A DNA stretch of 64,000 nt from an uncultured archaeon (lineage in GTDB: Archaea > Iainarchaeota > Iainarchaeia > Iainarchaeales > VGJJ01), in contig CAYZPC010000004.1 in NCBI GenBank assembly GCA_964480705.1, positions 387-64,386 on the forward strand, written 5' to 3'. Of the stretch, positions 1-49,682 are shown piece after piece. The number at the start of each line of letters is the position of its first letter. Position 1 is the first letter of the stretch. The position numbers were made by a program, and so were the translations under genes. The notes below the pieces were generated by a model. The model was not told the DNA's origin. It saw only the letters and a program-made list of their open reading frames with translations, and did not search any database.

Positions 1-339
1 TATGTATTCCTAGAATTTTTTTCAAGCACTGCGATGAGCCTCGTAGTGTTTGTCAGTCACAACCAAGGAAGGGGGATAACCCATGCGCGTCGAAGTCACC
101 GAGGAATTGCGTCTAAAGTTGCTTGAAGAAGAGTTTAAGCTCCGCTCAAAGCAGCCTACCGCTTGGACGAAAACAAAATTTCGCCCATACGCTAATTTCC
201 GCAGACCTAAGACGGAACAAGTTGTCCAGTAAGACAACTTGCCCGTGGGATTCCGAGAAAGTATTTCTCGGAAATAATTTCTTTTTCTATTTTGTTTTTC
301 GTTCACTATCCTTAAATAGCCGCTTTTCCTTTTCGAAGT

Positions 340-5562: not shown

Positions 5563-5629
5563 GGCGGACGCTCTCCCCTTTTCTCTTTATTTCCGCCCTC
5601 CTTATTAACAAAAAAAAGGTATATTCGCC

Positions 5630-11582: not shown

Positions 11583-11583
11583 T

Positions 11584-12738: not shown

Positions 12739-12747
12739 GGTCTCGGC

Positions 12748-13266: not shown

Positions 13267-16200
13267 TTTTTTTGAAAAAAAATCCCGCGCATTCGCGTTC
13301 AGCGCAGACGTCGTCCTCGCACTCATCCTCGTTACCAGCTTGTTTGTTTTTCTCTCCGCTCCCACTCAACCGGCGGCAAAGCTAGAAGAACGCCGCGTCG
13401 CCGACCAGTATGTGGATGACTTGTTTGTAGCACTCGACCACTCCGGTTTTATGTCACACGAATTAGATGTGAATGGGTATTCCATCGCCACTCTTCAAAA
13501 TGTGCACACGCGCGCAACATCACTTTTGCCCTCCAATTATTCGGCGTATCTCACCCTCACGCGTTATCCAGTGGATGTAAACTCCTGCCGCTCCGGCCAA
13601 GATTTCCAATCGTGTTTTCCCGATGCAAACGTTGCTTCTCTTTCCTATGGAACGGCACTCTCTCCTACTGCTGAATTTGTTCACGGCCGCCGCGTCTTTT
13701 TACAACAACAACCCGCGTCGCAGTGCAGCGCCTCTCCATCCGCCGCATCCTCCAATTGGCCCTTCGCTCTTTTTCCGGCGCAAGAACCTTACACCGCGTA
13801 TTTTTCCCACGATGTCAACCTAACATTTGATGTAAATGTTTCTCCCTCCGGTCCCCTCACGTGTGACCAAAATATTACTATTTCTTTGCAAATTTCTGGA
13901 AACACGGGCGCGCGAAAACCATTAGACATGGTCCTCGTTTTCGACCGCTCGGGAAGTATGTCGTGGGATGGACAAGAAGACACGACTGATGCATTTGGAA
14001 TCGCATTGTCTTCTAATGCCGCATTTATCGCAGACAGCACCTCGGGTTTGCGCGACATCAACATCATTAATCCTGGTTTGCCCAACCTACTTGGAACCTA
14101 CAACTCTCCCGGCACCGCGCGCGACGTGGATGTGAGCGGCAACTACGCTTATCTTGCGGACGGGACATCCGGTTTACGAATCGTAAACGTTTCAACGCTC
14201 ACCGCACCCACTTCCGTTGCCACCCTCGATGTGGGGGGCGATTCATACGGGGTTTTCACGCAAGACACACTCACGTATGTTGCCACGTATGGCACCAGCA
14301 CCACCGACCAAAGCAACATTGTCACTGCCAATCGAGATTTAGAAATTGGACAAAGCGCCTCCAACGCCACAGCTGCACAGTCGTTCCAACCCTCGCTTGA
14401 TTTTATTACCGGTGCAACAGTACACGTGCGCCGCGTGGGAAATCCCTCTGGAAATCTCTCGGTGAATCTCCGCTCTTCTCTCTCCGGAGCAGACTTAGCC
14501 ACCGCCACCATCACACCCGCGAGTCTCACGACATCCTACCAAGATATTGAGGTCACATTTCCCTCACTCGCGCAAGTAACGGGCGGCTCCACCTACTATC
14601 TCGTCCTCACCACCACTGCAAACAATTCATCCAACTATTACCAGTGGGGCGGCCGCGGCACAAATGGGTATGCGAATGGAACAGCTTATCAAAATAGTAC
14701 CAACCAAAGCCACGACATGCGTTTCCGCACGCACTACATTCCTGGTCTTATCAAAATTGACACTACCACCAAAAATTCTCCGAGCATTTTAGGAGCAGCC
14801 ACCCTCACGGCACCCTGGCGCGTGTTGGTGGAAAATGATTACGCATACGTTGCAGATGGTTCTGCCGGCATGCGCGTGTTTGATGTTTCAGCAGACACGC
14901 CCGTGGAAATAGGTTCATACAATACTCCCGGAACCGCCTACGATGTGACACTCGATGGAACATATGCCATTGTCTCAGATGGAACATCCGGCATTCGCAT
15001 CCTGGATGTTTCAACACCATCTTCTCCTACTTCGATTGCCACCTACAACACTCCCGGCACGGCCTACGCTGCGCGCGTGGACGCTGGCATTGCGTACGTG
15101 GCGGATGGAAGCTCAATACAAGTGATTGATATTTCCACTCCATCATCGCCCACCTTCTTGCGCTCGTACGCCACTCCCTACAATTACCGTGACCTCGAAA
15201 TCCAAAATGGGTGGGGATTTATTGCGGTGGATTCAAGCATCGAAGGATTAATGACATTCAACCTGTCTCTGGGTCCCAAAATTAATCAAGCCCAAGTAGC
15301 AGCTCAAACATTTGTTGATTTTAATGCGTGGGATTCAAACAATGATCAACTCGGCCTAGTCAGCTACTCCAGCTCAGCCACGACCGACCAAACACTCACC
15401 GGAAATTATGCACTTATCCGCTCCGACATTAATGCGCTTGTCGCAAGCGGGGGAACTGCCACTGGAGATGGAATCAACGCCGCCACGACTGAACTTATTA
15501 GTGCACGCCACAATCCTTCCGCGCTCAAATTCCAAATCCTCATGTCAGATGGTTTAACCAACTCGGGAGCGAACAGCGCAACTGCTGCCATTACTGCTGC
15601 CAACAATGGTATAGTGATTTACACCATTGGTTTCGGTGCAGAAGCCGATGTCGCTGAACTCAACAATATTGCCACCATCACGGGAGGAAAATATTATTCT
15701 GCATTAGACCAGAATGCGCTCATTGATGTGTACAATCTCATTGCCCAAGACATTCAGCTCATTGCCACGGACGCAAACGTGGTTGCTAACATTCCCACGG
15801 ATGTAAATATTGTGAGCGATGGAAATGGCTCCTTCATCAATGGAAATCTCATCTTTGATATCAACACGCAGGAACCCCAACCCTGGACCGTTGATTATAC
15901 GATTATTATTCCCTGCACATCTCAACTTGCATGCACCTCCACCCTCATTTCCGTTCCAAGTCCGGGAACCCAATTCCAATACGTGGACGCGAATGGAAAC
16001 ACCATTGTCATTGACTGGAACGTGTTCGAAACACAATCCTTCAATTATTACGATTTGAACCTTGAAATCGTTTCAGGAGATTTAGTCAGCACCAACAACA
16101 CTGACCTCACGGTAAAAGTATCCAGCGTTGGAAACCTAGACACGAATGCCACTTCCGTTTCATTCTACCAAAATGATCCCTCGTTTGGAAACCTACTCGC

Positions 16201-16426
16201 AACCAGTTCGGTTCCCGCACTCTGCGGCGCACTCAATCCCGGGTGCGTGACTTCGGATTATTTGTTCACGAGCAACGTGTCTGCGGAAGGAGAATTATGG
16301 GCTGTTGTGAATCCTAATCAGACGATTCCAGAATGTACCTACAATGATCGCGACGTGCTATTCTGCTATCAAAATCCCTCCACACAATTTTTCACGCTGG
16401 ATTATTGGGTGTGGTTGAATGAGTGA
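13256..16426 (+). CDS. giant pilin-like adhesin: class III signal peptide + vWA (MIDAS) domain interrupted by an LVIVD-repeat β-propeller
   Basis: N-terminus KKSRAFAFSADVVLALILVTSLFVFL; MIDAS motif LDMVLVFDRSGSMSWDG at ~aa 225; ~470-aa insertion with repeated YAYLADGTSGLRIVNVS / YAIVSDGTSGIRILDVSTPSSP units (LVIVD-like); remainder of the vWA fold (LGLVSYSS…TATGDGINAA…ILMSDGLTNSG…VIYTIGFG). Confidence 0.75.
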   Translation: MNHNFFEKKSRAFAFSADVVLALILVTSLFVFLSAPTQPAAKLEERRVADQYVDDLFVALDHSGFMSHELDVNGYSIATLQNVHTRATSLLPSNYSAYLTLTRYPVDVNSCRSGQDFQSCFPDANVASLSYGTALSPTAEFVHGRRVFLQQQPASQCSASPSAASSNWPFALFPAQEPYTAYFSHDVNLTFDVNVSPSGPLTCDQNITISLQISGNTGARKPLDMVLVFDRSGSMSWDGQEDTTDAFGIALSSNAAFIADSTSGLRDINIINPGLPNLLGTYNSPGTARDVDVSGNYAYLADGTSGLRIVNVSTLTAPTSVATLDVGGDSYGVFTQDTLTYVATYGTSTTDQSNIVTANRDLEIGQSASNATAAQSFQPSLDFITGATVHVRRVGNPSGNLSVNLRSSLSGADLATATITPASLTTSYQDIEVTFPSLAQVTGGSTYYLVLTTTANNSSNYYQWGGRGTNGYANGTAYQNSTNQSHDMRFRTHYIPGLIKIDTTTKNSPSILGAATLTAPWRVLVENDYAYVADGSAGMRVFDVSADTPVEIGSYNTPGTAYDVTLDGTYAIVSDGTSGIRILDVSTPSSPTSIATYNTPGTAYAARVDAGIAYVADGSSIQVIDISTPSSPTFLRSYATPYNYRDLEIQNGWGFIAVDSSIEGLMTFNLSLGPKINQAQVAAQTFVDFNAWDSNNDQLGLVSYSSSATTDQTLTGNYALIRSDINALVASGGTATGDGINAATTELISARHNPSALKFQILMSDGLTNSGANSATAAITAANNGIVIYTIGFGAEADVAELNNIATITGGKYYSALDQNALIDVYNLIAQDIQLIATDANVVANIPTDVNIVSDGNGSFINGNLIFDINTQEPQPWTVDYTIIIPCTSQLACTSTLISVPSPGTQFQYVDANGNTIVIDWNVFETQSFNYYDLNLEIVSGDLVSTNNTDLTVKVSSVGNLDTNATSVSFYQNDPSFGNLLATSSVPALCGALNPGCVTSDYLFTSNVSAEGELWAVVNPNQTIPECTYNDRDVLFCYQNPSTQFFTLDYWVWLNE

Positions 16427-17429
16427 ACGCTCCACTTTGCGCGGACAACGAGGAGTACTATTCACCTTTCTCACTTTCCTCTTCATCAGCGCAGTCGTAG
16501 GATTAATTGTCTTCAACACTAACCTCTCAAACCGCACATCCACTTCCACCGTTGAAATTTCCGTTCTCAACGCCATCAACGCCAAATACGATGACATTAC
16601 CGATGACATTATCACGCTCGACCACCCCATTGGAATTCCATCCATTCACCAGCGCATTCTGCCCTTCACTCATTCCACGGACAAAAACACCATTACTTTT
16701 CTCCAAACCCTCCCCATTGCCAGCGGAAAACTTTCTCTCTATTACGATTTGATTAACGCCTACGCTATTTTCGTCCGCGACCAAAACACATCCCGAACAT
16801 ACGATGGAGTGGATGTTGACATTGACGTACCCAAACCCCCTGCATGGGGAGGCGCTGCCCAATCTGCAGGATTCAACATTCTTCCCCAGTGTGTACAATA
16901 TCGCATTCTGGATACGAACACGATTAATTTTTCCAGCGACAGTACGATTGGATGCGAAACCGATTTCTCAATGCGCACCCACGTTTCGCGCATCGACATC
17001 AACATCTACCTCCCCACAACCACTGATGATTACAACGGCGCCACATGCTCATTCAATGGAACATTCTCCTGCCCGCACGAGGATTTCAACGCGCAGAATG
17101 GTCCATTTATTTCCATATTATTTTTCGATTCCAATTGTACAAACTGCACTCTCTCAACTAGTGACAAAAACATCTCCGGACACTTTGACCCGGACATCGT
17201 GAGCACGATAACCTATGCGTGTACGTCCGGAAACTGCAACTCTCAACCGCTCACATTCACTTTCTCCGATGGTCTCGAAATTAATCACGGCGGAACGGCC
17301 GCGACTCTCTCGATGGGCGTTTCATTTACGGAAAGTATACGCACGTTCTACTACCAAGATGCTAATTATTCCGTCAGCAAGAGTGGATTTGATACGATTA
17401 AAAGCAACGTCGTGGTGTTCCCCCAATGA
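16419..17429 (+). CDS. type IV pilin-like protein (class III signal peptide), 336 aa
   Basis: MSERSTLRG|QRGVLFTFLTFLFISAVVGLIVF; overlaps the upstream stop. Confidence 0.6.
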   Translation: MSERSTLRGQRGVLFTFLTFLFISAVVGLIVFNTNLSNRTSTSTVEISVLNAINAKYDDITDDIITLDHPIGIPSIHQRILPFTHSTDKNTITFLQTLPIASGKLSLYYDLINAYAIFVRDQNTSRTYDGVDVDIDVPKPPAWGGAAQSAGFNILPQCVQYRILDTNTINFSSDSTIGCETDFSMRTHVSRIDINIYLPTTTDDYNGATCSFNGTFSCPHEDFNAQNGPFISILFFDSNCTNCTLSTSDKNISGHFDPDIVSTITYACTSGNCNSQPLTFTFSDGLEINHGGTAATLSMGVSFTESIRTFYYQDANYSVSKSGFDTIKSNVVVFPQ

Positions 17430-18556
17430 GCCCCGGCGATGCTGCTACTATTCTAATCGCCCTCATCGTGACGGGTGCCATTGCATACTTTTTTGTCTTG
17501 CCCTCTCTGCAAACAAATGCTTCTTCCGCATCGGCTGAATTATTCGTCGAAGCTCCCTCCACCACACTCCCCAATCAATCCATCAACGTCACCATTGCCG
17601 CTAAATACGCCGAAGGAAAAACCATTCAAGCCACATCTGATGGACAAGCCAAAACATTTTCATGCGCCACCACGCCGTGCATTTTCTCCACCACGTTTTC
17701 CTATGCTCAACCCGGAGAAAAAACCATTTTAGTGCAATTAGATTCGCTCACGGAAACACGCACGATTAACGTGACGGCAGTCTCCAAACGCTGTCTCGAT
17801 GGCACCGTAGACGGAACGTGTTCCGCGCCCCCATTTTTTTGCGAAAACGCTCAACTGGTTTCCAATTGCACTCGCTGCGGCTGCCCCTCGGGAGAAGAAT
17901 GCATCTCCAACACGTGCACAAAACCCCCACTCACCTTTTCCATTCCTCTTGTTACCATTCCCGAAAATGTTTACACCACTGCCGTGGCGGCGGTGAATTA
18001 TTCTATTCAAAACACTTCCTCATTTGACGCGGATGGATTATTTTTACTCGTTGCCCAATCGTACTCTTCTTCGGAACAACTCCTTGATGAGCGCGCGCAG
18101 CAGATTCAACTCCACGATTTAGCGCCGGGAACAATTCACACGGGAACCGTGTCCATTTTGTTTCCGCTCAACACAACCAGTTTGCGCTTGCGCTTGTACG
18201 ACAACCCTTCTTCTTACCCTTCATCTACTCTCCTCGCCGAATCCGCTCGAGAAAATGTTCGCGTCACCACCGACACGACACCGCCCCTTCCCCCCACGCA
18301 ACTGGCTTCATCTTCCTCTGCCGGAGAAACACTTCTAACATGGACCGCATCCCCTTCCTCGGATGTAAAAAAATATATCATCTTTCAAGAAAACTTTTCC
18401 AACGGGGGATTCACCACCTATTCTACCGCGGGAGAAACCACCTCCACCCAGTTTTCTATTTCTTCTCCATCCTCTCCACTCGCCTACGTGGTTCGTGCCA
18501 TAGATGGTGCGGGAAACCAGAGTGAACCCACCTCTCCTGTGGTCGTTTCCTCTTAG
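17426..18556 (+). CDS. membrane-anchored protein with a Cys-rich segment and a C-terminal fibronectin type III-like domain
   Basis: N-terminal TM (ATILIALIVTGAIAYFFVL); Cys cluster CLDGTVDGTCSAPPFFCENAQLVSNCTRCGCPSGEECISNTC; FN3-like C-terminus (PPTQLASSSSAGETLLTWTASPSSDVKKYIIFQE…YVVRAIDGAGNQSEP); ATGA overlap with the upstream gene. Confidence 0.55.
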   Translation: MSPGDAATILIALIVTGAIAYFFVLPSLQTNASSASAELFVEAPSTTLPNQSINVTIAAKYAEGKTIQATSDGQAKTFSCATTPCIFSTTFSYAQPGEKTILVQLDSLTETRTINVTAVSKRCLDGTVDGTCSAPPFFCENAQLVSNCTRCGCPSGEECISNTCTKPPLTFSIPLVTIPENVYTTAVAAVNYSIQNTSSFDADGLFLLVAQSYSSSEQLLDERAQQIQLHDLAPGTIHTGTVSILFPLNTTSLRLRLYDNPSSYPSSTLLAESARENVRVTTDTTPPLPPTQLASSSSAGETLLTWTASPSSDVKKYIIFQENFSNGGFTTYSTAGETTSTQFSISSPSSPLAYVVRAIDGAGNQSEPTSPVVVSS

Positions 18557-18585
18557 GTTAAATACTCTAACTCATTTTTTCGGGC

Positions 18586-19197
18586 ATGGCCGACGCTCCC
18601 CCTGCCAGACCTGGATTATTTGCCGGGCTCGCCAAAATTCTTCATCTGCACCAGCTGCCGCAAGCCGCTCCAGGAACTAAAACTATTTCACCTAAAGGAG
18701 ATAGTGTGGTGATGGTGCCTCCCGTGCGCGCACCCGCGTCCTCTGCGAACACTTCCAAAACGCTTCCCACCCGTGCACCCATTCCTTCCCCCGTTTCTTC
18801 ACCCGCAAGCACGATGACTGCTCCGGTGTCGCGTCCAACTTCCCCTACACAACCAGCAGCTCCTCGTGCTCTCCCACACGCGACTGTTCCATCGGCAGGA
18901 TTATCCTCCATGGGAAACACGCACCCCAAGTGGGCCGTTTCACACGAAGTGAATCCTCCGCACACGCACGCACAACCCGGCGTATCAAAAGGAGTCATCG
19001 TCACCGATTACGATCGCATTCTCGATTTAGTAAAAGCCCGCCACCCCATCAAGTTGGATGAAATCGCGCGCCTTCTCTCTCTCAAAGAAGAATTAGTCGC
19101 ACAAGAATTGCAAACACTAGAAGACAATGGTTTAGTTGACGTGAAATATCCTGCATTTGGAGAACCACTCATCTATTTCAAAACACCCGAGGCCTGA
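18586..19197 (+). CDS. Pro/Ser/Thr-rich protein with a C-terminal winged-helix-like domain
   Basis: Low-complexity P/S/T-rich N-terminal 140 aa; C-terminus DRILDLVKARHPIKLDEIARLLSLKEELVAQELQTLEDNGLVDV reads as HTH/wHTH; sits immediately before the ATPase gene. Confidence 0.4.
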   Translation: MADAPPARPGLFAGLAKILHLHQLPQAAPGTKTISPKGDSVVMVPPVRAPASSANTSKTLPTRAPIPSPVSSPASTMTAPVSRPTSPTQPAAPRALPHATVPSAGLSSMGNTHPKWAVSHEVNPPHTHAQPGVSKGVIVTDYDRILDLVKARHPIKLDEIARLLSLKEELVAQELQTLEDNGLVDVKYPAFGEPLIYFKTPEA

Positions 19198-19200
19198 CGC

Positions 19201-20691
19201 ATGACATTCCAACGCATCGAAACGTATCCCATTCAAGCGGACATCACGGTGAGTGTGGACATTGGAAAAGATGACGTGGAGTTCGTCAAACGATACATTT
19301 TGCACACGCCCGAGTTTGGACTCGGAACGCGAGCGATGCTAAACGATTTGAAATCACGCATCGTGACAGAAGTAAACATCTCCTCCGAAAAAATGCTCGA
19401 TGCCAAATTTGTCGCCGAACTCAAAAAAACGTTTCACGAAAAAGCAGCCGTGCTCCTCGCGCGCGAACTCCCCGAACTCACGCAAGACGCGCGAGATCAA
19501 CTCTCCTCTGTCATTCTTAATGAAATGGTGGGACTGGGTCCCATTGAATTTCTCCTCGCGGATGGAAACCTCGAAGAAATTGTCGTGAACGCGGCCACAG
19601 AACCTGTGTGGGTGTATCACAAAAAACATGGCTGGTTGAAAACAAACATCATCATTACTCCAGAAGCCGAGATTCAAAATTACGCTAGCATCATTGCCCG
19701 CCGCGTTGGAAAACAAGTCACGGTGCTCAATCCCCTTCTCGATGCACACTTAGTCACAGGAGACCGTGCCAACTCCACACTCTTTCCAATTTCCTCGCGC
19801 GGAAACACGATTACTATTCGTCGTTTTCGCCGCGACCCGTGGACGGTAACCGATTTCATTGACACCAAAACATCCAACGCGGCATCCATGGCCATGCTCT
19901 GGCTCGCCATGGAATACGAACTAAACATCATTGTGTCCGGTGGAACTGGATCGGGAAAAACAACTCTCCTCAACGTCATGCTCCCATTCATACAGCCTAA
20001 CCAGCGTGTGCTAACCATTGAAGACACGCGCGAATTACAATTGCCTGACTTCCTGCACTGGGTCCCCATGACCACGCGCGAACCCAACTCCGAAGGAAAG
20101 GGCGGCGTGGGCATGCTTGATTTGCTCGTGAACTCCCTGCGAATGCGACCGGACCGAATCATTGTAGGTGAAATTCGTCGTCAGAGGGAAGCTGAAGTCA
20201 TGTTTGAAGCCATGCACACTGGACACTCGGTTTACGCGACGGTGCACGCCAACACCGCCGATGAAACCATTACGCGATTAGTAAGTCCGCCGATTGAAAT
20301 TCCCCCCTCTCTCTTAGAGGCCGTGCACTTGAACGTGGTCATGTTCCGTAATCGAAGATTAGGAGTGCGCCGTATCCTCCAACTTGCCGAATTCGTTCCT
20401 CAAAAAGCGGGAAGCGAAGGAAAAATACAAATCAAACCAAACATTTTGTACCGCTGGAGAGCATCCACGGACACTATTGAAAAATACGCGGAAAGTATTC
20501 GATTGTTTGATGAATTAGGCTTACATACGGGATACTCGGCGCAGGAACTCACCCAAAATTTATCTGAAAAACAACGCATCCTCGAATGGTTAGGCAAACA
20601 AAAAATACGCGACATTAATGAAGTGGGAAAAGTCATGGCAGAATATTATGCGGAACCCGAAACCGTGTTGAAACGCGCAGGAATCAAGTGA
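19201..20691 (+). CDS. type IV filament assembly ATPase (FlaI/TadA/VirB11 family)
   Basis: Walker A GGTGSGKTT; Asp box TIEDTRELQL; Walker B/His box region RPDRIIVGEIR…; 496 aa, typical for archaeal secretion-superfamily ATPases. Confidence 0.85.
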   Translation: MTFQRIETYPIQADITVSVDIGKDDVEFVKRYILHTPEFGLGTRAMLNDLKSRIVTEVNISSEKMLDAKFVAELKKTFHEKAAVLLARELPELTQDARDQLSSVILNEMVGLGPIEFLLADGNLEEIVVNAATEPVWVYHKKHGWLKTNIIITPEAEIQNYASIIARRVGKQVTVLNPLLDAHLVTGDRANSTLFPISSRGNTITIRRFRRDPWTVTDFIDTKTSNAASMAMLWLAMEYELNIIVSGGTGSGKTTLLNVMLPFIQPNQRVLTIEDTRELQLPDFLHWVPMTTREPNSEGKGGVGMLDLLVNSLRMRPDRIIVGEIRRQREAEVMFEAMHTGHSVYATVHANTADETITRLVSPPIEIPPSLLEAVHLNVVMFRNRRLGVRRILQLAEFVPQKAGSEGKIQIKPNILYRWRASTDTIEKYAESIRLFDELGLHTGYSAQELTQNLSEKQRILEWLGKQKIRDINEVGKVMAEYYAEPETVLKRAGIK

Positions 20692-20801
20692 GGTCTGCGC
20701 ATGATTGCACACTTAAACATCGGCCTTTTTTGCTTCGCAAAAAACCCCGGGGAAAATTTTGCATGTGTTTTGCATTACCTGTTCAAGTGGAGTGATCGTT
20801 C

Positions 20802-21695
20802 ATGATTGCACACTTTAACATGCCCCTGAATGTGCTGCCCATGCCCATGCTCCGATGGGCGAGCAAACATTTGCTTGGACTCGGCACCCAATTTGGAAAA
20901 CTCATGCCGCTCTCCGACAGCGACATGAAAAAAGCCGAAATACCCATGTCGGCAAAAGAATACTCCACCATGAGCCTCGTGATTGTTATTTTTTATTTCA
21001 TCTTTTTCGGATTCCTATTTTTTGTCATGACATTCCGATTATTTTCAAGTCTGGACATTCTTCTCCCATTAGGAGTTAGCTTTCTTTTTTCTATTTTAGT
21101 ATTAGTCCAACTCATCACATTTCCCATTATTCGCGTCACCAAAAAAGTCCGAGACTTAGACCGAAATCTCGTGTTTGCCCTGCGCACCATTCTCGTACAG
21201 CTTCGCTCGGGAGTAAGTTTGTTTGAATCCATGAAACTAGTGGGAGAAGGAAACTACGGCGCCGTGTCACGAGAATTCAAACGAGCCGTTGACCAAATTT
21301 CAACGGGAACGATTCAAGAAATTGCCCTCGAACGCATTGCAGAGTACAATCCGAGCATATTTTTTAGACGAGCCATCTGGCAAATCGTAAATGGAATGCG
21401 CGCCGGAGCAGACATTACAGTCGTATTGGGAGAAAGTGTGGACACTCTCACGGAAGCACAATCCATTCAAATTCGCAATTATGAAAGTCAAATGAAAATA
21501 CTCTCACTCGTTTACATGATGCTCGGCGTCATCGTTCCCGCGCTGGGAATCACCTTCCTCATCGTGCTCTCCTCTTTTCCCCAAATCAAAATCACCGAAC
21601 TCTATTTTTGGATTCTCCTCGCGGGAGTGAGCATCGCCCAATTCATGTATTTAGGTATTGTCAAAAGCAAGCGCCCGACGCTGCTGGGTGATTAA
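20802..21695 (+). CDS. pilus platform membrane protein, single T2SSF domain (TadB/EpdJ-like)
   Basis: 297 aa with TM helices and a GspF-type motif ALRTILVQLRSGVSLFESMKLV. Confidence 0.7.
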   Translation: MIAHFNMPLNVLPMPMLRWASKHLLGLGTQFGKLMPLSDSDMKKAEIPMSAKEYSTMSLVIVIFYFIFFGFLFFVMTFRLFSSLDILLPLGVSFLFSILVLVQLITFPIIRVTKKVRDLDRNLVFALRTILVQLRSGVSLFESMKLVGEGNYGAVSREFKRAVDQISTGTIQEIALERIAEYNPSIFFRRAIWQIVNGMRAGADITVVLGESVDTLTEAQSIQIRNYESQMKILSLVYMMLGVIVPALGITFLIVLSSFPQIKITELYFWILLAGVSIAQFMYLGIVKSKRPTLLGD

Positions 21696-21697
21696 AC

Positions 21698-22714
21698 ATG
21701 CCCTCCTCGCGCAACGATTTCATTTTTCTCCGCGCCATTATCGAAGCGTTTGAAACAGAGTTCGCCTACTTGGGAGTGCGAATCTCCTCGCGAAAATTCG
21801 TTCTCAACATGCTCATGTTTGCCTTCGCCGCGAGCGTGGGCTCCACTATTTTTACCAGCCTCGTGCTGCGCTGGCCATACTTTTTAGTGGTAGTGGGATT
21901 TTTCGCCACATTCATCCTCGTCATGGGGGGAATCTACATGTTTTTGGACTTGCAAGCCGAATCCCGCGGACGACAAGTCGAACGCGTTCTCCCCGATGCA
22001 TTGCAACTCATCGCCAGCAACATCAAATCCGGACTCACCACGGAACGCGCGCTCCTCGTTTCCGCGCGGCCGGAATTTGGTCCGCTTGAAACAGAGTTCA
22101 AACGCATCTCCACCCGAATACTATCGGGTGTTCCCATCGAGAAAGCCATCATGGAAGTGCCCAAACACATCAAATCAACTCTTGTTGAACGCACGATGTG
22201 GCTGCTCGCGCGCGGAATATCTTCCGGAGGAGAAATTGCGGATTTATTATTACAACTCTCCCGCAACCTTCGCTCCCAACTCACTCTGCAAAGCGAAGCC
22301 CGCGCATCTATCTCCATTTATGTTATTTTGATATTCTTCTCCGCCGCGTTTGGAGGGCCTGCACTTTATGCCGTGTCAAGTTTCATTGTCGAAGTCATGA
22401 GCTCGCAAATAGGAAACCAGCCCCAAATTGATCCAGGTGCGTTAGCCGCCGCGGGCGCACGATCATCTTCATTAGGCGCATTTGTGGGAGGAAGCTCTGG
22501 AATCATTTCCCCTGAATTCATCACCATGTTCGCGCAAATCATGTTATTTGTGGGAGGAATATTTGCCTCGCTCATTTTAGGGGCGATAGCCACCGGAAAA
22601 GAAAAAGATGGAATCAAATATTTGCCATTCGTCATGCTCTGCTCGTTCGGATTATTTTTCCTCATACGATTTGTGTTACACTCCGCATTTGGAACACTCT
22701 TGTTAGGCGGATAA
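21698..22714 (+). CDS. pilus platform membrane protein, single T2SSF domain (TadC/EpdK-like)
   Basis: 338 aa; LPDALQLIASNIKSGLTTERALLV…; polytopic membrane protein; adjacent to the TadB-like gene. Confidence 0.7.
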   Translation: MPSSRNDFIFLRAIIEAFETEFAYLGVRISSRKFVLNMLMFAFAASVGSTIFTSLVLRWPYFLVVVGFFATFILVMGGIYMFLDLQAESRGRQVERVLPDALQLIASNIKSGLTTERALLVSARPEFGPLETEFKRISTRILSGVPIEKAIMEVPKHIKSTLVERTMWLLARGISSGGEIADLLLQLSRNLRSQLTLQSEARASISIYVILIFFSAAFGGPALYAVSSFIVEVMSSQIGNQPQIDPGALAAAGARSSSLGAFVGGSSGIISPEFITMFAQIMLFVGGIFASLILGAIATGKEKDGIKYLPFVMLCSFGLFFLIRFVLHSAFGTLLLGG

Positions 22715-22760
22715 ATCGTTCGTGTGGCGCACACGAAATTATTATTGTGTAAATGGTACA

Positions 22761-23474
22761 CTACACTTGCGAGAATAATTCTTCTTTGGGAAGGACTTCA
22801 ATTCCGTGCGCAGTGATTCGTACGGGGCGGAGTTTGTCGCTGATTTTAGTATCGCGCATTTTGAGAATACCAATACTTCTCACAAAACGATTTTCCACGC
22901 GCGTGTGGTACAAGAGAACAACTCCATCCGCCACATATTCTTCCAATCCAAACAATCCTTCGTGCTGTCCCGTGGTGGATTCGTTGGTGACTATCGTGGT
23001 GACGTTTAATTTTTTCAACATTTTTCCCAAACTCAGGATGCGTTTTCGTGCATCTAATTCGCGTTCAAAATACAAATGAAAAATGACACCGGGGTCGATG
23101 ATGAGCCGCGATGCTTTGTGTTTCGCAACTAAATCCTCAATACTGTCTCTCAACTTGTCAAAATCATACAACTCAACGGTTTGCATGATTATTTTTCCTT
23201 TCTTAATCATCCCTTCCAAATCCCACCCAAAAATAGCGGCCGTCTCCATAAGCTCTTCAGGCTTTTCTTCCAGTGAAATAAACACGCCCGTTTCATTGTG
23301 TTTAGCCGCTCCATTGTACAAATATTGCAGGCAAAAAATGGTTTTTCCCGCTCCGGGGTCTCCCGTTAATACGACTAAATTTCCTTTCGGAATACCCCCC
23401 TCAATCAACTCGTCTAAACCCATGACTTCGGTCGGGGTGCGTTGCACGATGGCGTTGCCCATGACACTTTTCAC
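22761..23474 (-). CDS. KaiC/RecA-superfamily ATPase, FlaH-like
   Basis: Walker A LVVLTGDPGAGKTIF; Walker B-like ASRLIIDPG; ~230 aa as in FlaH; the true start may be the internal MGLDELIEGGIP (23423). Confidence 0.7.
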   Translation of the reverse strand: MKSVMGNAIVQRTPTEVMGLDELIEGGIPKGNLVVLTGDPGAGKTIFCLQYLYNGAAKHNETGVFISLEEKPEELMETAAIFGWDLEGMIKKGKIIMQTVELYDFDKLRDSIEDLVAKHKASRLIIDPGVIFHLYFERELDARKRILSLGKMLKKLNVTTIVTNESTTGQHEGLFGLEEYVADGVVLLYHTRVENRFVRSIGILKMRDTKISDKLRPVRITAHGIEVLPKEELFSQV

Positions 23475-42514: not shown

Positions 42515-42715
42515 ATGGCACGAAGACGAAGACGCGCTGCAGCATCTACTGCACGCCGAACATCACGACGACGAACCGCTCGACGCAGTACCGCAAAAAC
42601 GGCACGACGATCAACTGCTCGCCGACGAACCGCACGCCGAGCAACCACTGCCCGACGCAGCACATCTCGACGAACAAGCACGCGACGCCGCGCGCGACGA
42701 AGCCGAAGAGCATAA
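42515..42715 (+). CDS. 66-aa arginine-rich repeat protein (RRSTARR/TARR units), possibly nucleic-acid binding
   Basis: ATG with SD GGAGG 10 nt upstream; 25 Arg in 66 aa; downstream imperfect hairpin + T-tracts; the mirror ORF on the − strand was rejected. Confidence 0.4.
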   Translation: MARRRRRAAASTARRTSRRRTARRSTAKTARRSTARRRTARRATTARRSTSRRTSTRRRARRSRRA

Positions 42716-42755: not shown

Positions 42756-43055
42756 TTATACCAACTTTTTTTTGCGATTTAGACGACGAGCCACTCTAAA
42801 CGGGCGCGTCTGGCGATGAACCCAAATAGCCATTCCCACTAGGATAAGGAAAGCCGTCACGTTCCACGGAAAAGCCACCACATTCCAGTCGGGGTCCAAG
42901 TAAATAGCAATGGCTGCCGCAATTCCCACCGAAAGAATAATCTCAACCAGGCTCAACAAGGGAATGCGATAATCGGATTTCCACTGCCCCCACTTAAACC
43001 TAAAAATGGCTCTCCATGAAACATTCTCTCTGGAAAATGATTTGCTCTGCTTCAT
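42756..43055 (-). CDS. small 2-TM membrane protein, hypothetical
   Basis: Start MKQSKS… overlaps the stop of the upstream gene (ATGA). Confidence 0.4.
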   Translation of the reverse strand: MKQSKSFSRENVSWRAIFRFKWGQWKSDYRIPLLSLVEIILSVGIAAAIAIYLDPDWNVVAFPWNVTAFLILVGMAIWVHRQTRPFRVARRLNRKKKLV

Positions 43056-44875
43056 CACGGACACGCATCCCGAATAATATGGTTGAAAATATTGTCGCAT
43101 AACTCCGGTCCATTCGACGCCCCGGCTAAATAATCCCAGCACGTGTCGCGGGCAAGTCGGGCTTCATTCATGTCCTCAACAGGTTTCATTGGAATCGTCC
43201 CACAAATGGTCAAATTAGGAATTTTGTATCCCACTTTTGCGTAACACAATCCTTTTTCTTGCTGCGCGGGAATATACGCACACGCTGCCAATGAAAGCGT
43301 TACTTCCGCAACATCCGTGATACAATCATACTGCGTCACCAGGTTAGTGGTTATTTTGGTGCAATACTGCCAGTCTCCCAGCGATTTTGCCAACGCAAGG
43401 ACGCAGGGTTCTTTCATTTCTTTGTTAATTACTTTTTCACACAAGGCTTTCTGCTTCAAACTAATTGCCAAATCCGAATAACATTGGTCGCGTCCTAGGA
43501 CGTTAGTGATTGCTTCACACGCTGACGCATTTCCGGAAGCCGCTGCGACTTGCCCCACGCACGCGTCGCGGGTGGATTTATCTAAAATAGATTGACACAC
43601 AACCTCATTTTTTGTTTTAGTGGCAATCGACAAATAACAATTGTCCTTTGACGTGTCATTGGTGATTTCTCCACATCCTTGCGCATTCAACGCGGCTGTG
43701 CTCACGGTAAAATAACACGTATTCTTAGCATCCGGTGCATCCACGTTTGCGCAGAGCGTTGTTTGATTGGTGTCCAATGCAACGGTGGCGAAGCATTTGT
43801 CGGCATACGCAAATGATTCTGTGACAATGTTCAATTCTCCGCAAACAACAGAGTTGTGCGTCTGAATCGCCACTCCCAAAATACAACTCTCGCGCGCCAC
43901 ACCAGAAAGAATGTAACACGCTTCCTTCGTGCCCTTTCCCGCGACTACATCCGTGTAGCAGGTTTGGCGTTTCTCTTCTTCTTCAATTTTATTGCAAATA
44001 TTTTCATCCTTAATGCTTTTGGCAACTGCTGCAAAACAGTCATCTCTTTTTTCCAAATTAAGAATGCCGCTGCACAAATCAACCTGCTTATTGTTTACGG
44101 CTAAACTTTTCAAACAATCATCTTTCTTAGCCAAATCATTCAAACTCGCACACGAGTTGCTCGCTGCAGCCGCTGCCAACGCTTGCGACAAGCAAGATGC
44201 GCGAATGGCCTGCGTCGAAATAGCATTACACAATGATGCATTGGCCTGTGCAATAGCCACTTTCAACACACAATCTTCGCGTGACACGGAATCTGAAATA
44301 CGCAAGCAAGCGGCACTACTCTTAGCCTGCACGGCCGTGAGAATAAAACAATCCTCTCGCTTCTCTTCAGACGTAATCAGTTCACACACTTCGGGGCTGG
44401 ATGCTGCCTGTGCTAATTCCGTGAAACAATCGGTCTGCGCCGTATTCGTCAAATAACAAAATGCTTCATTCTTCTGAATGCGTGCCGCGTTACGGTAGCA
44501 ATCTTCCTGCGCAGCCGTGTCCGTTATTGCAGAGCATGAATCCACTTGGTTGAATGCCCCTGGCGCGGCATCGGCACAACTGTGCTGTGCACTATCATTC
44601 TGAATGAGCAAGCACACTAACCCATCTTTGGTTGCAAGTGCAACGCCGCGAATACAATCATCTTTGGTGTTTGCGGCAATGATGTGATTGCAAATTCCCT
44701 CATCTTTTTGGGCGAGTGCCGCGTCGCGGTAACAATTATCCTGCGACACCGTGTCGGTGAGAGCGATGCATGAAACAGTGTTGGCTCCCGCATTTGGGTC
44801 CAAAAAAATCTGGTCGATACACCCCGATGCGAAAATGATAATCAGAATAGGGATGAGGGTAGTGGGTTGCATCAT
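43055..44875 (-). CDS. secreted Cys-rich tandem-repeat protein (606 aa; ~30 units of ~18–19 aa)
   Basis: Signal peptide MMQPTTLIPILIIIFASGC; repeating C-x2-I-x5-7-(R/K)(D/E)xC-x4-(V/L)A units; >60 Cys. Confidence 0.7.
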   Translation of the reverse strand: MMQPTTLIPILIIIFASGCIDQIFLDPNAGANTVSCIALTDTVSQDNCYRDAALAQKDEGICNHIIAANTKDDCIRGVALATKDGLVCLLIQNDSAQHSCADAAPGAFNQVDSCSAITDTAAQEDCYRNAARIQKNEAFCYLTNTAQTDCFTELAQAASSPEVCELITSEEKREDCFILTAVQAKSSAACLRISDSVSREDCVLKVAIAQANASLCNAISTQAIRASCLSQALAAAAASNSCASLNDLAKKDDCLKSLAVNNKQVDLCSGILNLEKRDDCFAAVAKSIKDENICNKIEEEEKRQTCYTDVVAGKGTKEACYILSGVARESCILGVAIQTHNSVVCGELNIVTESFAYADKCFATVALDTNQTTLCANVDAPDAKNTCYFTVSTAALNAQGCGEITNDTSKDNCYLSIATKTKNEVVCQSILDKSTRDACVGQVAAASGNASACEAITNVLGRDQCYSDLAISLKQKALCEKVINKEMKEPCVLALAKSLGDWQYCTKITTNLVTQYDCITDVAEVTLSLAACAYIPAQQEKGLCYAKVGYKIPNLTICGTIPMKPVEDMNEARLARDTCWDYLAGASNGPELCDNIFNHIIRDACP

Positions 44876-44920
44876 AGCCCATCGGCAAAGGGCTATTTAA
44901 GGGTGCATTTTGGCGTTTTT

Positions 44921-45439
44921 TTAGACCGCGAGAATAGCAATCAACCCCACTCCCACCAAACGGAAAAGTATCGTTTGATTCGCCAGCCAAATGAGTGCGG
45001 ACGTGAGGATGGCAATCGGCCACGTGAGGACATACCCAGCTAGCTTGATTAATTTGCTCCCCATTGAAAGATTGCCTGAAGCGGTTTCACTAAAACGACG
45101 GGAAATAGCCGTGGGAATGTTGGTTGCGTCGGTCGTAGACGGAATGGCATGAAAGCCAATGGAGATGGCGAGCCAAAATAACACTGCTGCCAGCAAACTG
45201 TTTGTTTCTCCTGCTTGGTTAGCTGCTTGAAAAAATAAAAAACTCAAAATAGTTCCCGCCGCGAGAGGAGCAAACGCAATCATCCATGCATTGCGCGCGT
45301 TGGTGGGATCGTGCACCACCACTCCAGAGTTTGAACGCACGTGCACGCGATGCACTTTCACATTTCCTATTACGCACGCGAGGGCATGTGCTCCTTCGTG
45401 CACCCACACGCCTGGAAAAAAAATGCTCAGGGTGTTCAT
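44921..45439 (-). CDS. membrane protein with an HExxH zinc-metalloprotease motif
   Basis: VWVHEGAHALA near the N-terminus, then 4 TM helices. Confidence 0.45.
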   Translation of the reverse strand: MNTLSIFFPGVWVHEGAHALACVIGNVKVHRVHVRSNSGVVVHDPTNARNAWMIAFAPLAAGTILSFLFFQAANQAGETNSLLAAVLFWLAISIGFHAIPSTTDATNIPTAISRRFSETASGNLSMGSKLIKLAGYVLTWPIAILTSALIWLANQTILFRLVGVGLIAILAV

Positions 45440-45442
45440 TCA

Positions 45443-45904
45443 TCATCGCCGCTCTTTGAGCAAGGGTTTGTTCTCGTCTACTTCCATTCCAAATGCTTTG
45501 TCAATCTCTCGCGCGGTTTCCTGCATGCGCATGAAAATACGTTTGATATCTTCCTCCACTTCCTGCACCGTTCGCACCATACTTCGCGAGCGCGCAAAAT
45601 AATTTCGTCCTTGCTTTACTACTAAACCGGATAATTGTAAATTATTCAAGTGATGAATCACCGCGCCGCGGGAAAGTTGTATTTTTTCTGCAATATCCGT
45701 GGAAGAAATTCCTTTTCCATCTTCGGTTGCTTTTACAATAATTTTGAAAATATCTAAGGTGGCCTTGTCCTTGTTCACGGGACTCAAACCTAGTGATTGG
45801 CACAACCACTCCATTTCTTGTTCGGTATTTCTCTCGAAAGGGGGGTCGATGCGGCGGATTACTATTCTAAACGTGGTGCGGCGAATGCCATCCATACCCT
45901 GCAT
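45443..45904 (-). CDS. winged-helix transcriptional regulator, divergent from grpE
   Basis: HTH ISSTDIAEKIQLSRGAVIHHLNNLQLSGLVVKQGRNYFA (ArsR/Phr-like); start taken at an internal Met. Confidence 0.5.
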   Translation of the reverse strand: MQGMDGIRRTTFRIVIRRIDPPFERNTEQEMEWLCQSLGLSPVNKDKATLDIFKIIVKATEDGKGISSTDIAEKIQLSRGAVIHHLNNLQLSGLVVKQGRNYFARSRSMVRTVQEVEEDIKRIFMRMQETAREIDKAFGMEVDENKPLLKERR

Positions 45905-45970
45905 GGACACCAATACCCTTAAAAAAGGAATGATTGGAAAAGACAGTATATGTCTAAAATTATTAGACAA

Positions 45971-46538
45971 AATGGTGTTTAATATGTTCAAAACCCCCGA
46001 AAAAGCCCATTTGCCGCCCACGGAAGGAGCGTCTCCCGCCGAGGAAAAGGTGCGCGAACTCACGGAGACTGTGCAGCGCGTCCAAGCGGATTTCGAAAAT
46101 TACCGTAAACGCGCTCAAAATGAGCAGACCATCACCTATTTGCGCGGCAAGGCCGCGGCGTTGAAAGACATGTTAAGCATCATCGACACGCTCGATTCGG
46201 CGATAAGCAAAGAAAAAGATGGCACGCGCCACGCGCTAGAAAACATTCGCACGCACATGCTGCACATTCTATCGCAGAGCGGAGTGAAACCCATTCACAC
46301 GGTTGGAAAAATTTTCGACCCTTTCACGAGCGAATGCTTGATGCAGGGAAACGATCCCACCAAAAATGAAGATATTGTATTGGACGAAATGCAGCGCGGA
46401 TATTATTTTCACGAAGACGTTTTACGACCGGCGAAAGTGAAAGTAAACAAACGCCGCGAAGAAGAAAATGAAAATGAAAACAAAATGAATAATGATAATC
46501 AATCAAACAATACTACCGGAGGAATCAACCATGAGTAA
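45971..46538 (+). CDS. grpE: nucleotide exchange factor GrpE
   Basis: [16 protein letters not shown]…, C-terminal β domain; start at ATG 45971 to avoid the regulator on the other strand. Confidence 0.8.
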
Positions 46539-48390
46539 AGTAATTGGAATCGATTTAGGAACATCAAACTCGGCCGCGGCCGTATTAGAAGGAGGAAAAC
46601 CCCGCATCATTCCGAGTGCGGAAGGAAACACTCTCTATGGAAAAGCATTCCCCTCCGTGGTTGCATTCACGAAAGATGGACAAGTTCTTGTAGGTGAACC
46701 CGCGCGCCGACAAGCCGTATCCAATCCGGATGGAACCGTCATGGCCGCGAAACGAAAAATGGGAACCAATCATGCGTATAAAATAAACGGAAAAGATTAC
46801 ACTCCGCAGCAAATCTCTGCATTCATTTTACAAAAAATCAAAAAAGACGCGGAATCATTCCTAGGTGAAAAAGTCGACAAAGCTGTTATCACCGTTCCTG
46901 CGTATTTTGATGACAACCAGCGACAAGCCACGAAGGATGCAGGACAAATTGCCGGTCTTGAAGTCATTCGAATTGTAAACGAACCCACCGCGGCCTCACT
47001 CGCGTATGGTTTGGACAAAAAAAATTCCGAACAAAAAATTCTCGTGTTTGATTTAGGAGGCGGAACACTCGATGTCACCGTAATGGAATTCGGTGATGGC
47101 GTGTTTGAAGTTCGCTCCACGAGCGGAGATACGCAACTCGGCGGAACCGACATGGATGCAGCGGTGATCAATTGGATTGTTTCTGAATTTTCACGCACTG
47201 AACGCGCGGATTTGAGCAAAGACAAAGTAGCCATGCAGCGCGTCCGCGAAGCAGCGGAGAAAGCCAAAATTGAACTCTCCACCACGCTCGAAACGGAAAT
47301 TAATCTTCCATACATTACTGCGGATGCCAGCGGGCCCAAACACTTAGTCATGAAATTTAACCGCGCCAAGCTCGAAGAACTGGTGCAGCCCATTGTAAAG
47401 CGCTGCGAAAAGCCAGTAAATCAAGCCCTCGCGGATGCTAAACTTCTCCCCGCAGACATTTCGCGCGTCATTTTAGTTGGCGGACCCACGCGCATGCCTA
47501 TTGTGCAGCAATTCGTGGAACGCATTTTGGGAACCAAAACCGAACATGGAGTGGACCCCATGGAATGTGTGGCAATGGGTGCTGCCGTGCAAGCGGGCGT
47601 GTTGAGCGGAGAAATCAAGGACGTTCTATTGCTGGATGTCACTCCCCTCTCGCTTGGAATTGAAACCCTTGGGGGAGTCATGACCAAACTCGTTGAACGA
47701 AACACGACGATTCCTCACAAGAAGAGCCAAATCTTCTCAACGGCTGCGGACAATCAACCCGGGGTTGAAATCAAAGTGTATCAAGGAGAACGCGCCATGG
47801 CAGCGGACAACAAGTTGTTAGGAACATTTGTCCTGCAAGGAATCCCCCCCGCTCCGCGCGGCGTGCCGCAAATTGAAGTCTCATTTGATTTAGATGCAAA
47901 TGGAATCATGCACGTCTCTGCAAAGGACATGGGAACAGGAAAGGAACAGCGAATTCAAATTATTGCTGCCCAAAAATTAGATGAAAATGAAATCAAGCGC
48001 ATGCAAAAATCCGCCGAAGAATTTGCAGAAGCCGACAAAAAACGCAAAGAAGAAGTCGAAATAGTCAACCAAGCCGATGCCACCGTTTATCAAACGGAAA
48101 AAATGCTGGACGAAATGAAAGACAAGATTTCCGCACCAAACAAGAGCATGGTGGAGGCAGGGTTAAAAGAATTGAAAGACATGTTAGGACAAGAGCCTAA
48201 ACCCGTCGCACAATTGAAAACAAAATTAGAACAATTCAACAAAGACTTAATGAAAATAGGACAGGACATTTATGGAAAGCAAGGAAATAGTGCTCAATCA
48301 ACGGGAGGACAACATGAAGCAAATGAAACAAACGAAAGCGGAAATTCCGATGCCGTGGACGCTGACTTCAAAGTCAACGAAGGCAAGTAA
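46531..48390 (+). CDS. dnaK: chaperone DnaK (Hsp70), bacterial type
   Basis: [30 protein letters not shown]; SD GGAGG 7 nt upstream. Confidence 0.95.
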
Positions 48391-48515
48391 AATTCAAAAG
48401 AATAAAACGCTCGATGACCAGCGAAAGTTCATGGCCGCATGAACACGCGTTGAGCGGATTTTTATTCTGCATTGCATTTCATTCCATTTATTCACACTCA
48501 AACACGTGAGCACGC

Positions 48516-49682
48516 ATGGCTTCCAAAGACTATTACGCAACACTCGGACTCTCCAAGAACGCCAGCGATGCCGACATCAAATCGGCGTACAAAAAACTCG
48601 CGAAACAATGGCATCCGGATGTGAACAAGAGCCCAGAAGCCACCGAAAAATTCAAAGAAATTAGCGAAGCATATTCCATTCTCTCGGATTCACAAAAAAG
48701 ACAAACATACGACCAGTTTGGCAGCGACGCATTCTCTGGAGGAGGATTTGGAGGCGGCTCAGGCGGATTTCCAGGCGGAGGCGCCGGGTTTGATTTCTCT
48801 GACTTATTCCGCGAAGGATTTGGGGGCGCAGGAGGATATTCCTCCATGGATGACCTCTTGCGAAGCGCATTCGGAGAAGGATTTTCCGCGCAGCGTGAGC
48901 AAGCACAACCATTGCACGTGCGCACGGACGTAGAATTAACATTTGAAGAAGCCGCATTCGGCACCACTAAAACGATTGAGTTTGAACGACTATCCCCCTG
49001 CGACACATGCTCGGGAAGCGGGTCCGCGAGCGGAAAAAAACAGACGTGCACCACGTGTAAAGGGCGCGGCATGCACACGCAAACGCGCCGAACGCCTTTT
49101 GGAATTTTTCAAACCACGGGAACATGCTCCACGTGCGGGGGAACCGGACACTCGATTTCAGATCCATGCAAAACATGCAAAGGAAAAGGACACGTGAAAA
49201 AATGGCAAAAACTAGATGTCAAAATTCCCGCAGGAGTGGACACGGGAAATCATCTTCGACTTGCGAAACAAGGACACGTTCAACATGGAAAACATGGCGA
49301 CGTGTATGTAGTGCTGCACGTGCGACCGCACCCGGTATTTAGACGCGATGGCAGTGATGTGTATGTGGAACAGCCCATCTCGTACGCTGACGCGGTGTTA
49401 GGCGGAGAAGTGGACGTTCCATTGCTCGGAGGAAAAACTGCCACACTCACCATTCCCGCGGGAACTAAACCCGGAAAAGTGTTTCGAATGAAAGACAAAG
49501 GAATCAAATTCCTAAACGAGGATGCATTTGGAGATGAATTCGTGCGCGTAGAAATTGACGTTCCCGAAAAATTGAGCGCGGAAGAAAAAGCATTGCTGGA
49601 TGAGTTTCGAGCGCTTCACCAGCACGGAACCCCCAAATCAGCAGGAAAAAAGTCCAAAAAGAAAGGATTCTTTGGAATCTGA
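48516..49682 (+). CDS. dnaJ: co-chaperone DnaJ
   Basis: J-domain HPD (QWHPDVN), G/F region, four CxxCxGxG repeats. Confidence 0.9.
   Translation: MASKDYYATLGLSKNASDADIKSAYKKLAKQWHPDVNKSPEATEKFKEISEAYSILSDSQKRQTYDQFGSDAFSGGGFGGGSGGFPGGGAGFDFSDLFREGFGGAGGYSSMDDLLRSAFGEGFSAQREQAQPLHVRTDVELTFEEAAFGTTKTIEFERLSPCDTCSGSGSASGKKQTCTTCKGRGMHTQTRRTPFGIFQTTGTCSTCGGTGHSISDPCKTCKGKGHVKKWQKLDVKIPAGVDTGNHLRLAKQGHVQHGKHGDVYVVLHVRPHPVFRRDGSDVYVEQPISYADAVLGGEVDVPLLGGKTATLTIPAGTKPGKVFRMKDKGIKFLNEDAFGDEFVRVEIDVPEKLSAEEKALLDEFRALHQHGTPKSAGKKSKKKGFFGI

Follow-up and report, generated by a model that had tools for sequence, protein, structure and literature searches.

The window analyzed here, a 64,000-nucleotide stretch from an uncultured archaeon of the Iainarchaeota, carries on its minus strand a gene for a 606-residue protein composed of short, cysteine-containing repeats (hereafter the Cys-repeat protein). 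The open reading frame (ORF) starts with an ATG at 44875 and ends with a TGA at 43057..43055, and was correctly delimited in the initial annotation of this DNA, which was made from the sequence and a list of ORFs. It is preceded by genes for a winged helix-turn-helix (wHTH) regulator and a membrane protein with an HExxH motif, and it is followed by a gene for a small protein with two transmembrane helices (2-TM protein) and a RibL-like gene. The positions of these and other features are collected in Table 1. The Cys-repeat protein is one orthologue of a very large, nameless archaeal family of lipoproteins or membrane-anchored proteins that share the same repeat.

Table 1 Features of the Cys-repeat protein gene and other features in the window.
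Feature	Position	Strand	Basis and remarks
Cys-repeat protein gene, 606 aa	43055..44875	-	Stop included; ORF list, sequence, full-length orthologues at 32–58% identity
Signal peptide with lipobox-like end A-S-G-C19 (MMQPTTLIPILIIIFASG followed by C)	44819..44875	-	Hydropathy; G18 and C19 invariant in aligned relatives
22-unit array, ~26 aa per unit	43058..44770	-	Residues 36–606; pattern C-x11-C-x13; double-unit profile, AlphaFold2 secondary structure
Unit 13, with 4-residue insertion between its Cys residues	43754..43843	-	Residues 345–374; spacing 16, same in 5/5 orthologues
Unit 21, with 9-residue insertion CGTIPMKPVEDMNEARLARDTC	43100..43204	-	Residues 558–592; spacing 21, kept in all orthologues
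TATA-box-like octamer TTAAATAG	44893..44900	-	17 nt from first ATG, 20 nt from second ATG
2-TM protein gene, 99 aa	42756..43055	-	Two transmembrane helices, basic N- and C-terminal tails; 47–66% identity in five loci
M50B-like/DUF3267-like gene, 172-aa polytopic membrane protein	44921..45439	-	Invariant FPGVxxHExAHALAC (HExxH)
Winged-HTH regulator gene (ArsR/MarR-like)	45443..46063	-	Pfam HTH_24, HTH_5; syntenic in five loci
grpE-dnaK-dnaJ	45699..49682	+	
66-aa Arg-rich ORF (MARRRRRAAASTARRTSRRRTARRSTAKTARRSTARRRTARR…)	42515..42715	+	Between 2-TM and RibL-like genes
Surface/pilus-type cluster	9463..23474		
1252-aa ORF	1042..4800	-	No Pfam match at E≤1e-4

The Cys-repeat protein contains 45 Cys residues (7.4% of the sequence) and only four His residues. 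After Cys19, the distance from one Cys to the next alternates between 12 and 14 residues. Altogether, 38 of the 44 spacings are exactly 12 or 14, while shuffled sequences gave 2.6 on average and 11 at most (100,000 shuffles), and the exceptional spacings (10, 11, 16, 13, and 21) always occur at a position otherwise occupied by 12. Eleven matches to the protein were obtained with a profile of ten double units, giving 22 units with a period of approximately 26 residues (12 + 14). The consensus of the units within the protein is C-x2-[ILV]-x5-[RKQ]-[DE]-x-C-[YFV]-x2-[VAL]-A, and the last (22nd) unit stops right after its second Cys (…RDAC-P-stop). The initial annotation had noticed this striking regularity and had proposed a Cys-held solenoid, an idea that was right in substance; its motif was off by one residue in two places, and its counts, more than 60 cysteines and about 30 units of 18–19 residues, were wrong. 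Since the units share only ~25% identity with one another and no DNA-level tandem repeat was detected in the gene by Tandem Repeats Finder, the array is old and does not stem from a recent expansion. No paralogue with the same Cys pattern is present in the window, and an exact look-up of the 606-residue protein in the assembly collection returned no record.

The structure of the protein was predicted using AlphaFold2. A model from the single sequence was all-helical with a predicted local distance difference test (pLDDT) score of 68, and the model calculated with 60 family sequences is an all-α solenoid with a mean pLDDT of 88.6 (419 residues ≥90) and a predicted template modeling (pTM) score of 0.62. 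In the latter model, 76% of residues 31–606 are helical, and each unit runs through a helix of 6 residues, a loop of 3, a second helix of 15, and a turn of 2. The short helix has the first Cys as its fourth residue, and the long helix has the second Cys as its seventh, each in 19 of the 22 units. Both Cys residues are in register with conserved hydrophobic positions, namely L/I26–C1–I4 on the short helix and C13–Y14–V17–A18 on the long helix. Because of this helix periodicity, the two Cys residues seem to face the inter-helix core, a placement deduced from the periodicity and not from coordinates.

The N-terminus of the Cys-repeat protein is hydrophobic, in line with the signal peptide of the initial annotation. 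The signal peptide ends in a lipobox-like sequence, FASG followed by Cys19, which fits a relaxed lipobox, and therefore a lipid anchor is more probable than the free secretion proposed in the initial annotation. The archaeal lipobox, which follows a hydrophobic signal segment, reads [LVI]-[ASTVI]-[GAS]-C; archaeal lipobox proteins bear thioether-linked archaeol, and the lipidation factor AliA has been reported in the Euryarchaeota and the DPANN group (PMC12462473). As in the lipobox lipoproteins of the AliA/AliB pathway in Haloferax volcanii, the hydrophobic signal is followed by two small residues, Gly, and an invariant Cys, and positions −2, −1, and +1 (S-G-C) fit the motif. When a relaxed pattern ([LVIFMAT][ASTVIGL][GAS]C within the first 45 residues) was applied to the 152 best family members, 73 had a lipobox-like motif, mostly LSGC or FSGC, so that canonical lipoboxes do occur in the wider family. 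The mature Cys-repeat protein is acidic (pI 4.7) and has six N-x-S/T sequons, and a few relatives among 60 family members carry accessory domains of an extracellular type (fn3, TSP3_bac, SdrD_B, and CarboxypepD_reg in Pfam).

We compared the Cys-repeat protein with orthologues from five related loci. Four of these were found in a scan of one genome per species, two labeled Candidatus Iainarchaeum (including the complete 1.05-Mb genome CP064981.1) and two labeled uncultured archaeon, and the fifth was obtained from a Logan assembly. Iainarchaeum is placed in the Iainarchaeota, a phylum of the DPANN group formerly called Diapherotrites, so the pointer of the initial annotation to DPANN archaea holds. 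The window protein shares 57–58% identity with two of the orthologues (L002 and L004) and 32–34% with the others (L001, L003, and L005). It is the fastest-evolving gene product of the neighborhood, with 32–34% identity where the neighbors retain 42–65%. All five orthologues nevertheless have 45 Cys residues with the same spacings, including those of 10, 11, 16, 13/14, and 21. In the alignment of the six proteins, all 45 Cys residues are invariant and most other positions vary. In the wider family, only about a dozen Cys substitutions occur in 821 aligned four-unit stretches from ~150 members. The complete invariance in the orthologues shows that the Cys residues are chemically required and do not merely fill the hydrophobic core; core position I4 of the unit, by contrast, is Ile in only 61% of 1,131 family units. 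The number of units is also fixed in the orthologues, and the insertions in units 13 and 21 are conserved, the latter with several invariant residues inside it, which suggests, from the alignment, a specific partner rather than a generic coat.

The extent of the family was examined by an exhaustive HMMER search of 50%-identity cluster representatives with a profile of the double units of the window protein itself. The search returned 7,300 clusters at E≤1e-3, 2,658 at ≤1e-10, and 199 at ≤1e-30. Among the 150 best members, the prevailing spacings are 14 (1,838 times) and 12 (1,515 times), and the consensus of 1,131 canonical units is C-[ED]-K-I-x-D-x3-[KR]-D-x-C-Y-x2-[VIL]-A-x4-D-x-S-[LI]. The window protein has the features of this family, with units of ~26 residues, 12/14 spacing, and an N-terminal export signal with a lipobox-like end. 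Among 30 members whose names were looked up, every named one is a "hypothetical protein" except for one from the Altiarchaeota, which is named for a zinc ribbon that precedes its repeats at the N-terminus and has no lipobox-type anchor. The named taxa in the sample are Diapherotrites, Iainarchaeum, and Altiarchaeota. Three other family loci carry typically archaeal genes (RFC-like ATPase, Hjc, NurA/HerA/Rad50, and FKBP26), and two were uninformative.

This family is absent from the databases consulted. Pfam contains no family that matches the window protein at E≤1 and no model that covers the repeats in 60 members at E≤0.01, and NCBIfam gave no match to the protein. Against PDB sequences, the repeat profile had no match at E≤10, and the only match of the single sequence, at 13 bits to a hydrogenase subunit, is attributable to chance. 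No description of a C-x11-C-x13 repeat was found in the literature. The 26-residue two-Cys unit, the size of the family, and its DPANN setting thus appear to be undescribed and unannotated, while a Cys-stapled helical repeat on the cell surface is, as a kind of solution, already known. A word-indexed homology search found nothing with the single protein or with a 10-row profile and a single 114-residue match with a profile of 80 rows and 104 columns. Low-identity repeat proteins are a blind spot of this 5-mer-indexed search, which missed the family because the relatives share too few exact 5-mers. One metagenomic contig (L006) carries two members in tandem, a 224-residue paralogue (5317..5991) lying directly upstream of a 927-residue protein (P0001, 6001..8784). 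On the same contig, a DsbD_TM (CcdA-like) gene (1..75) is located ~6 kb upstream of the pair and may hint at a thiol-redox partner.

The properties of the cysteines favor disulfides over metal sites, since the protein is predicted to be extracellular, has few His residues, contains no CxxC or CxC motif, and has a minimum Cys spacing of 10. In addition, the number of units is odd in 59 of 156 family arrays, which does not fit obligatory Cys4 sites shared by two units. The most likely arrangement would be one disulfide per unit, from the first Cys to the second Cys 12 residues further on. Intra-unit pairing is favored by the ends of the arrays, the Cys counts, the co-loss of Cys residues, and the distribution of length variation. 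A first-type Cys opens the array of the window protein, whose C-terminus lies two residues past a second-type Cys. Among 246 family arrays, 214 start with the first type, 189 end with the second type, and 177 have an even number of Cys residues. Cys residues were lost together with their intra-unit partner four times and together with an inter-unit partner not once. All variation in length lies between the first and second Cys of a unit; from the second Cys, the first Cys of the following unit is always 14 residues away.

We lean, with slightly better than even confidence, to the view that the Cys-repeat protein is a lipid-anchored extracellular solenoid with one disulfide in each repeat, which serves this DPANN archaeon as a rigid binding scaffold. 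The Sec-type signal peptide would direct export, and the protein would probably be anchored by lipidation of Cys19. The remainder is predicted to fold into a long α-solenoid of 22 copies of the 26-residue unit, in which the two invariant, core-facing Cys residues of each unit would form 22 intra-unit staples that make a thin solenoid rigid outside the cell. Insertions would be tolerated only within the loop closed by the disulfide. The protein would be expressed from its own TATA-like promoter together with the 2-TM protein. By analogy with other α/α solenoids, its function is most likely that of a non-enzymatic scaffold at the surface, in adhesion or in the organization of partners in the envelope. 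The closest parallel is found in HcpB and HcpC of Helicobacter, in which disulfides lock a Sel1-like repeat (SLR) solenoid (PMC3851747). These are likewise exported α/α solenoids of tandem helix-loop-helix units with paired Cys residues that tether neighboring helices in every unit, as the predicted fold and putative disulfides would do here. In both cases, one inter-helix loop is constant in length and the other is variable, and the presumed role is that of an interaction scaffold. On the other hand, the Cys-repeat protein falls outside the Hcp family and differs from its proteins in its period of 26 instead of 36–38 residues, in having one helix of only six residues, and in lacking the SLR signature, as well as in its archaeal host, lipobox-like anchor, and 22 units per chain.

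Several observations weigh against this view. At position −3 of the lipobox, the window protein has Ala and its orthologues have Ser or Thr, unlike the Leu, Val, or Ile of the strict archaeal/bacterial motif. The pairing is argued from sequence. The co-loss statistics are tiny (four versus zero), and since Cys residues are almost never lost, the analyses of co-loss and of long spacings are underpowered with respect to pairing. No disulfide-forming enzyme was recognized among the window ORFs scanned against Pfam. Spontaneous formation of extracellular disulfides is not to be taken for granted in the anoxic water that many DPANN archaea inhabit. The term "binding scaffold" is an argument by analogy. 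Furthermore, the gene order in the five related loci is kept over a whole region of ~15 kb that includes unrelated housekeeping genes (ValRS, RIO-type kinase, and RibL-like), so that synteny alone says little about function, and distant family members do not keep the same neighbors.

The Cys-repeat gene and the 2-TM gene are almost certainly co-transcribed, as read from their junction, because the start of the 2-TM gene overlaps the stop codon or follows it within 15 nucleotides in all loci. The initial annotation had suggested co-transcription through an ATGA overlap; the 2-TM ORF does follow immediately, and the overlap is instead TGATG. At the junction (cc-gTGATGaag), the stop codon TGA of the Cys-repeat gene shares one nucleotide with the ATG of the 2-TM gene (43055..43053), and an alternative GTG start at 43058 would give a 4-nucleotide GTGA overlap. 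The one-base overlap with the stop codon is found in three loci, and the others have a gap of 13–15 nucleotides. The outside loop of the 2-TM protein (YLDPDWNVVAFPWNV in the window) is conserved as YLDP[DE]xN[VA]VPFPWN. Upstream of the Cys-repeat gene, the octamer TTAAATAG is found 20–22 nucleotides before the start codon in all five related loci, while its flanks have diverged. Judged by the general features of archaeal promoters, TTAAATAG looks like a TATA box that would give the Cys-repeat gene its own promoter and a nearly leaderless mRNA. In the window, the second ATG (44872) agrees better with this spacing than the first does and may be the real start codon.

The M50B-like protein has three to four predicted transmembrane segments, and its HEGAH sequence is invariant in six orthologues, as are the motifs VKVH, SGxVVHD, and FHAIPSTxD. 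Its match to Pfam PF13398 (E=1.6e-5) scores 25.2 bits and narrowly misses the cutoff of 26, and the protein has no match in NCBIfam and no relative in PDB. A gene for a small putative intramembrane metalloprotease adjoins a lipoprotein gene here in an archaeon; the signal peptidase for archaeal lipoproteins has yet to be identified (PMC12462473). The wHTH gene ends three nucleotides before the M50B-like gene. Its long ORF and that of grpE overlap on opposite strands, so that the real starts of both are probably internal, that of the wHTH gene at about 45904. The order wHTH, M50B-like, Cys-repeat, 2-TM, and RibL-like is the same in the five loci, where grpE-dnaK-dnaJ is also divergent from the wHTH gene. 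The wHTH protein may regulate the Hsp70 operon of this DPANN lineage.

This arrangement can also be read as a module of regulated proteolysis in which the solenoid is the sensor arm. Together with the 2-TM protein, the lipoprotein would govern the HExxH protease, which would act on the wHTH protein or its membrane tether and thereby tune grpE-dnaK-dnaJ, in analogy to BlaR1/BlaI or RseA/RseP. The four genes run in the same direction and are closely spaced, with gaps of 3 and 45 nucleotides and the 1-nucleotide overlap, and their order is kept in the five loci although the Cys-repeat proteins are only 32–58% identical. The invariance of HExxH and of further His and Asp residues in the protease-like protein, the highly conserved outside loop of the 2-TM protein, and the divergent position of the wHTH gene next to the chaperone genes also agree with such a module. 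However, the linkage may be mere inheritance in a region that is syntenic as a whole, and the conserved TATA-like box between the protease-like and Cys-repeat genes suggests separate transcription units. The M50B-like match lies below the Pfam cutoff, and nothing in the data points to membrane association or cleavage of the wHTH protein. Distant family members lack these neighbors: neither M50B-like nor 2-TM genes were found beside the members in L006, L007, L009, L011, and L012, and a general link of the repeat family to these genes was rejected on this basis. We therefore consider a sensor function of the solenoid unlikely. There is similarly only a slim chance that the far-reaching combination of both ideas applies, namely that the repeat defines an undescribed minimal class of disulfide-stapled α-solenoids that is a major surface family of the DPANN archaea, and that its 22-unit member here belongs to an HExxH/2-TM/wHTH sensing pathway controlling grpE-dnaK-dnaJ.

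Alternatively, the cysteines could bind metal, for example in Zn or Fe-S sites between helices formed by Cys residues of neighboring units, and the solenoid could store or sense metal or conduct electrons. The 44 regularly spaced Cys residues are absolutely invariant, combining their 22 pairs would in principle yield 11 sites of four Cys each, and many DPANN archaea inhabit reducing environments. One Sel1-like solenoid is known to contain a metal site (PMC3851747). The Cys spacings, the scarcity of His, the odd unit numbers, and the predicted extracellular location described above speak against metal sites, and no metal-binding family in Pfam or NCBIfam matches the protein. We regard metal binding as improbable and retain the disulfide-stapled surface scaffold as the preferred reading.

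The structure was also compared with known repeat classes. When both models were searched against PDB with Foldseek, nothing but generic solenoids (TPR, HAT, and HEAT) came up, with TM-scores ≤0.23 and root mean square deviations (rmsd) >22 Å, and hhalign gave a probability of 0.15% between the repeat profile and a TPR protein of locus L006. The initial annotation had seen no obvious match to TPR, HEAT, or Sel1, and this stands: the Pfam models of Sel1 (PF08238), TPR, and HEAT/ARM/LRV do not match the window protein (E≤1), and Pfam TPR, HEAT, or Sel1 is found in none of the 60 family members (E≤0.01). The predicted fold resembles the TPR, HAT, and HEAT α-solenoids in its stacked antiparallel helix pairs. 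TPR (34 residues), HAT, and HEAT repeats range from 34 to over 40 residues, are mostly cytoplasmic, and lack conserved Cys residues, unlike the unit described here. The leucine-rich variant (LRV) repeat of Azotobacter, a solenoid of 24-residue units with α and 3-10 helices, is a possible lead, similar in its very short period and in the alternation of a longer helix with a very short one; it is not known to carry paired Cys residues, and LRV was outside the top 50 Foldseek matches. That the protein is merely a very divergent member of one of these classes (Sel1-like, TPR, HEAT, or the 24-residue LRV), with no need for a new family, is very improbable: the helix-loop-helix architecture, the best Foldseek matches, and the paired Cys residues of the Sel1-like Hcp proteins would suit it, but a period of 26 residues against 34 for TPR and 36–38 (up to ~44) for SLR (PMC3851747) and the failure of the sequence and structure comparisons do not. 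PADLOC gave no meaningful match of the operon proteins to models of known anti-phage defense systems, only a generic wHTH similarity (Csa3/CasR-type) and a 38-residue, 18.9-bit match of the Cys-repeat protein to HamC.

The genomes of DPANN archaea are tiny, many of these organisms presumably rely on cell–cell contact with hosts, and annotation is still lacking for most of their surface proteins. The family described here, with thousands of 50%-identity clusters and a simple, testable architecture, is missing from Pfam, NCBIfam, and PDB, and the profile and motif provide a handle for annotating a sizeable part of this "dark" surface proteome. If the disulfide staples are real, the unit would be, as far as we know, one of the shortest natural α/α solenoid repeats and a natural counterpart of designed helical-repeat proteins, and the question arises of how these organisms oxidize 22 Cys pairs outside the cell. 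Nothing known is overturned, since the general solution is familiar from the Helicobacter Hcp proteins.

By its gene content the window is archaeal, with genes for Kae1, the RibL-like cytidylyltransferase, Rpo7, aIF2-gamma, aIF5B, the ribosomal proteins S6e and S3Ae, CDP-archaeol synthase, and SecD/F, together with the chaperone operon; no tRNA or Rfam family was found. The surface/pilus-type cluster in Table 1 encodes a 1056-residue protein with LVIVD repeats and a VWA domain, a Lamin-tail-domain protein, a T2SSE-type ATPase, two T2SSF-type membrane proteins, a KaiC-like ATPase, and several ORFs with no Pfam match. The extremely Arg-rich ORF between the 2-TM and RibL-like genes lies in a locally GC-rich stretch of ~230 nucleotides. 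A similar ORF rich in Arg, Thr, Ala, and Ser occurs at the same place, on the strand opposite to the Cys-repeat gene, in the four loci inspected (L001, L002, L003, and L004), and may encode a conserved, protamine-like small basic protein.

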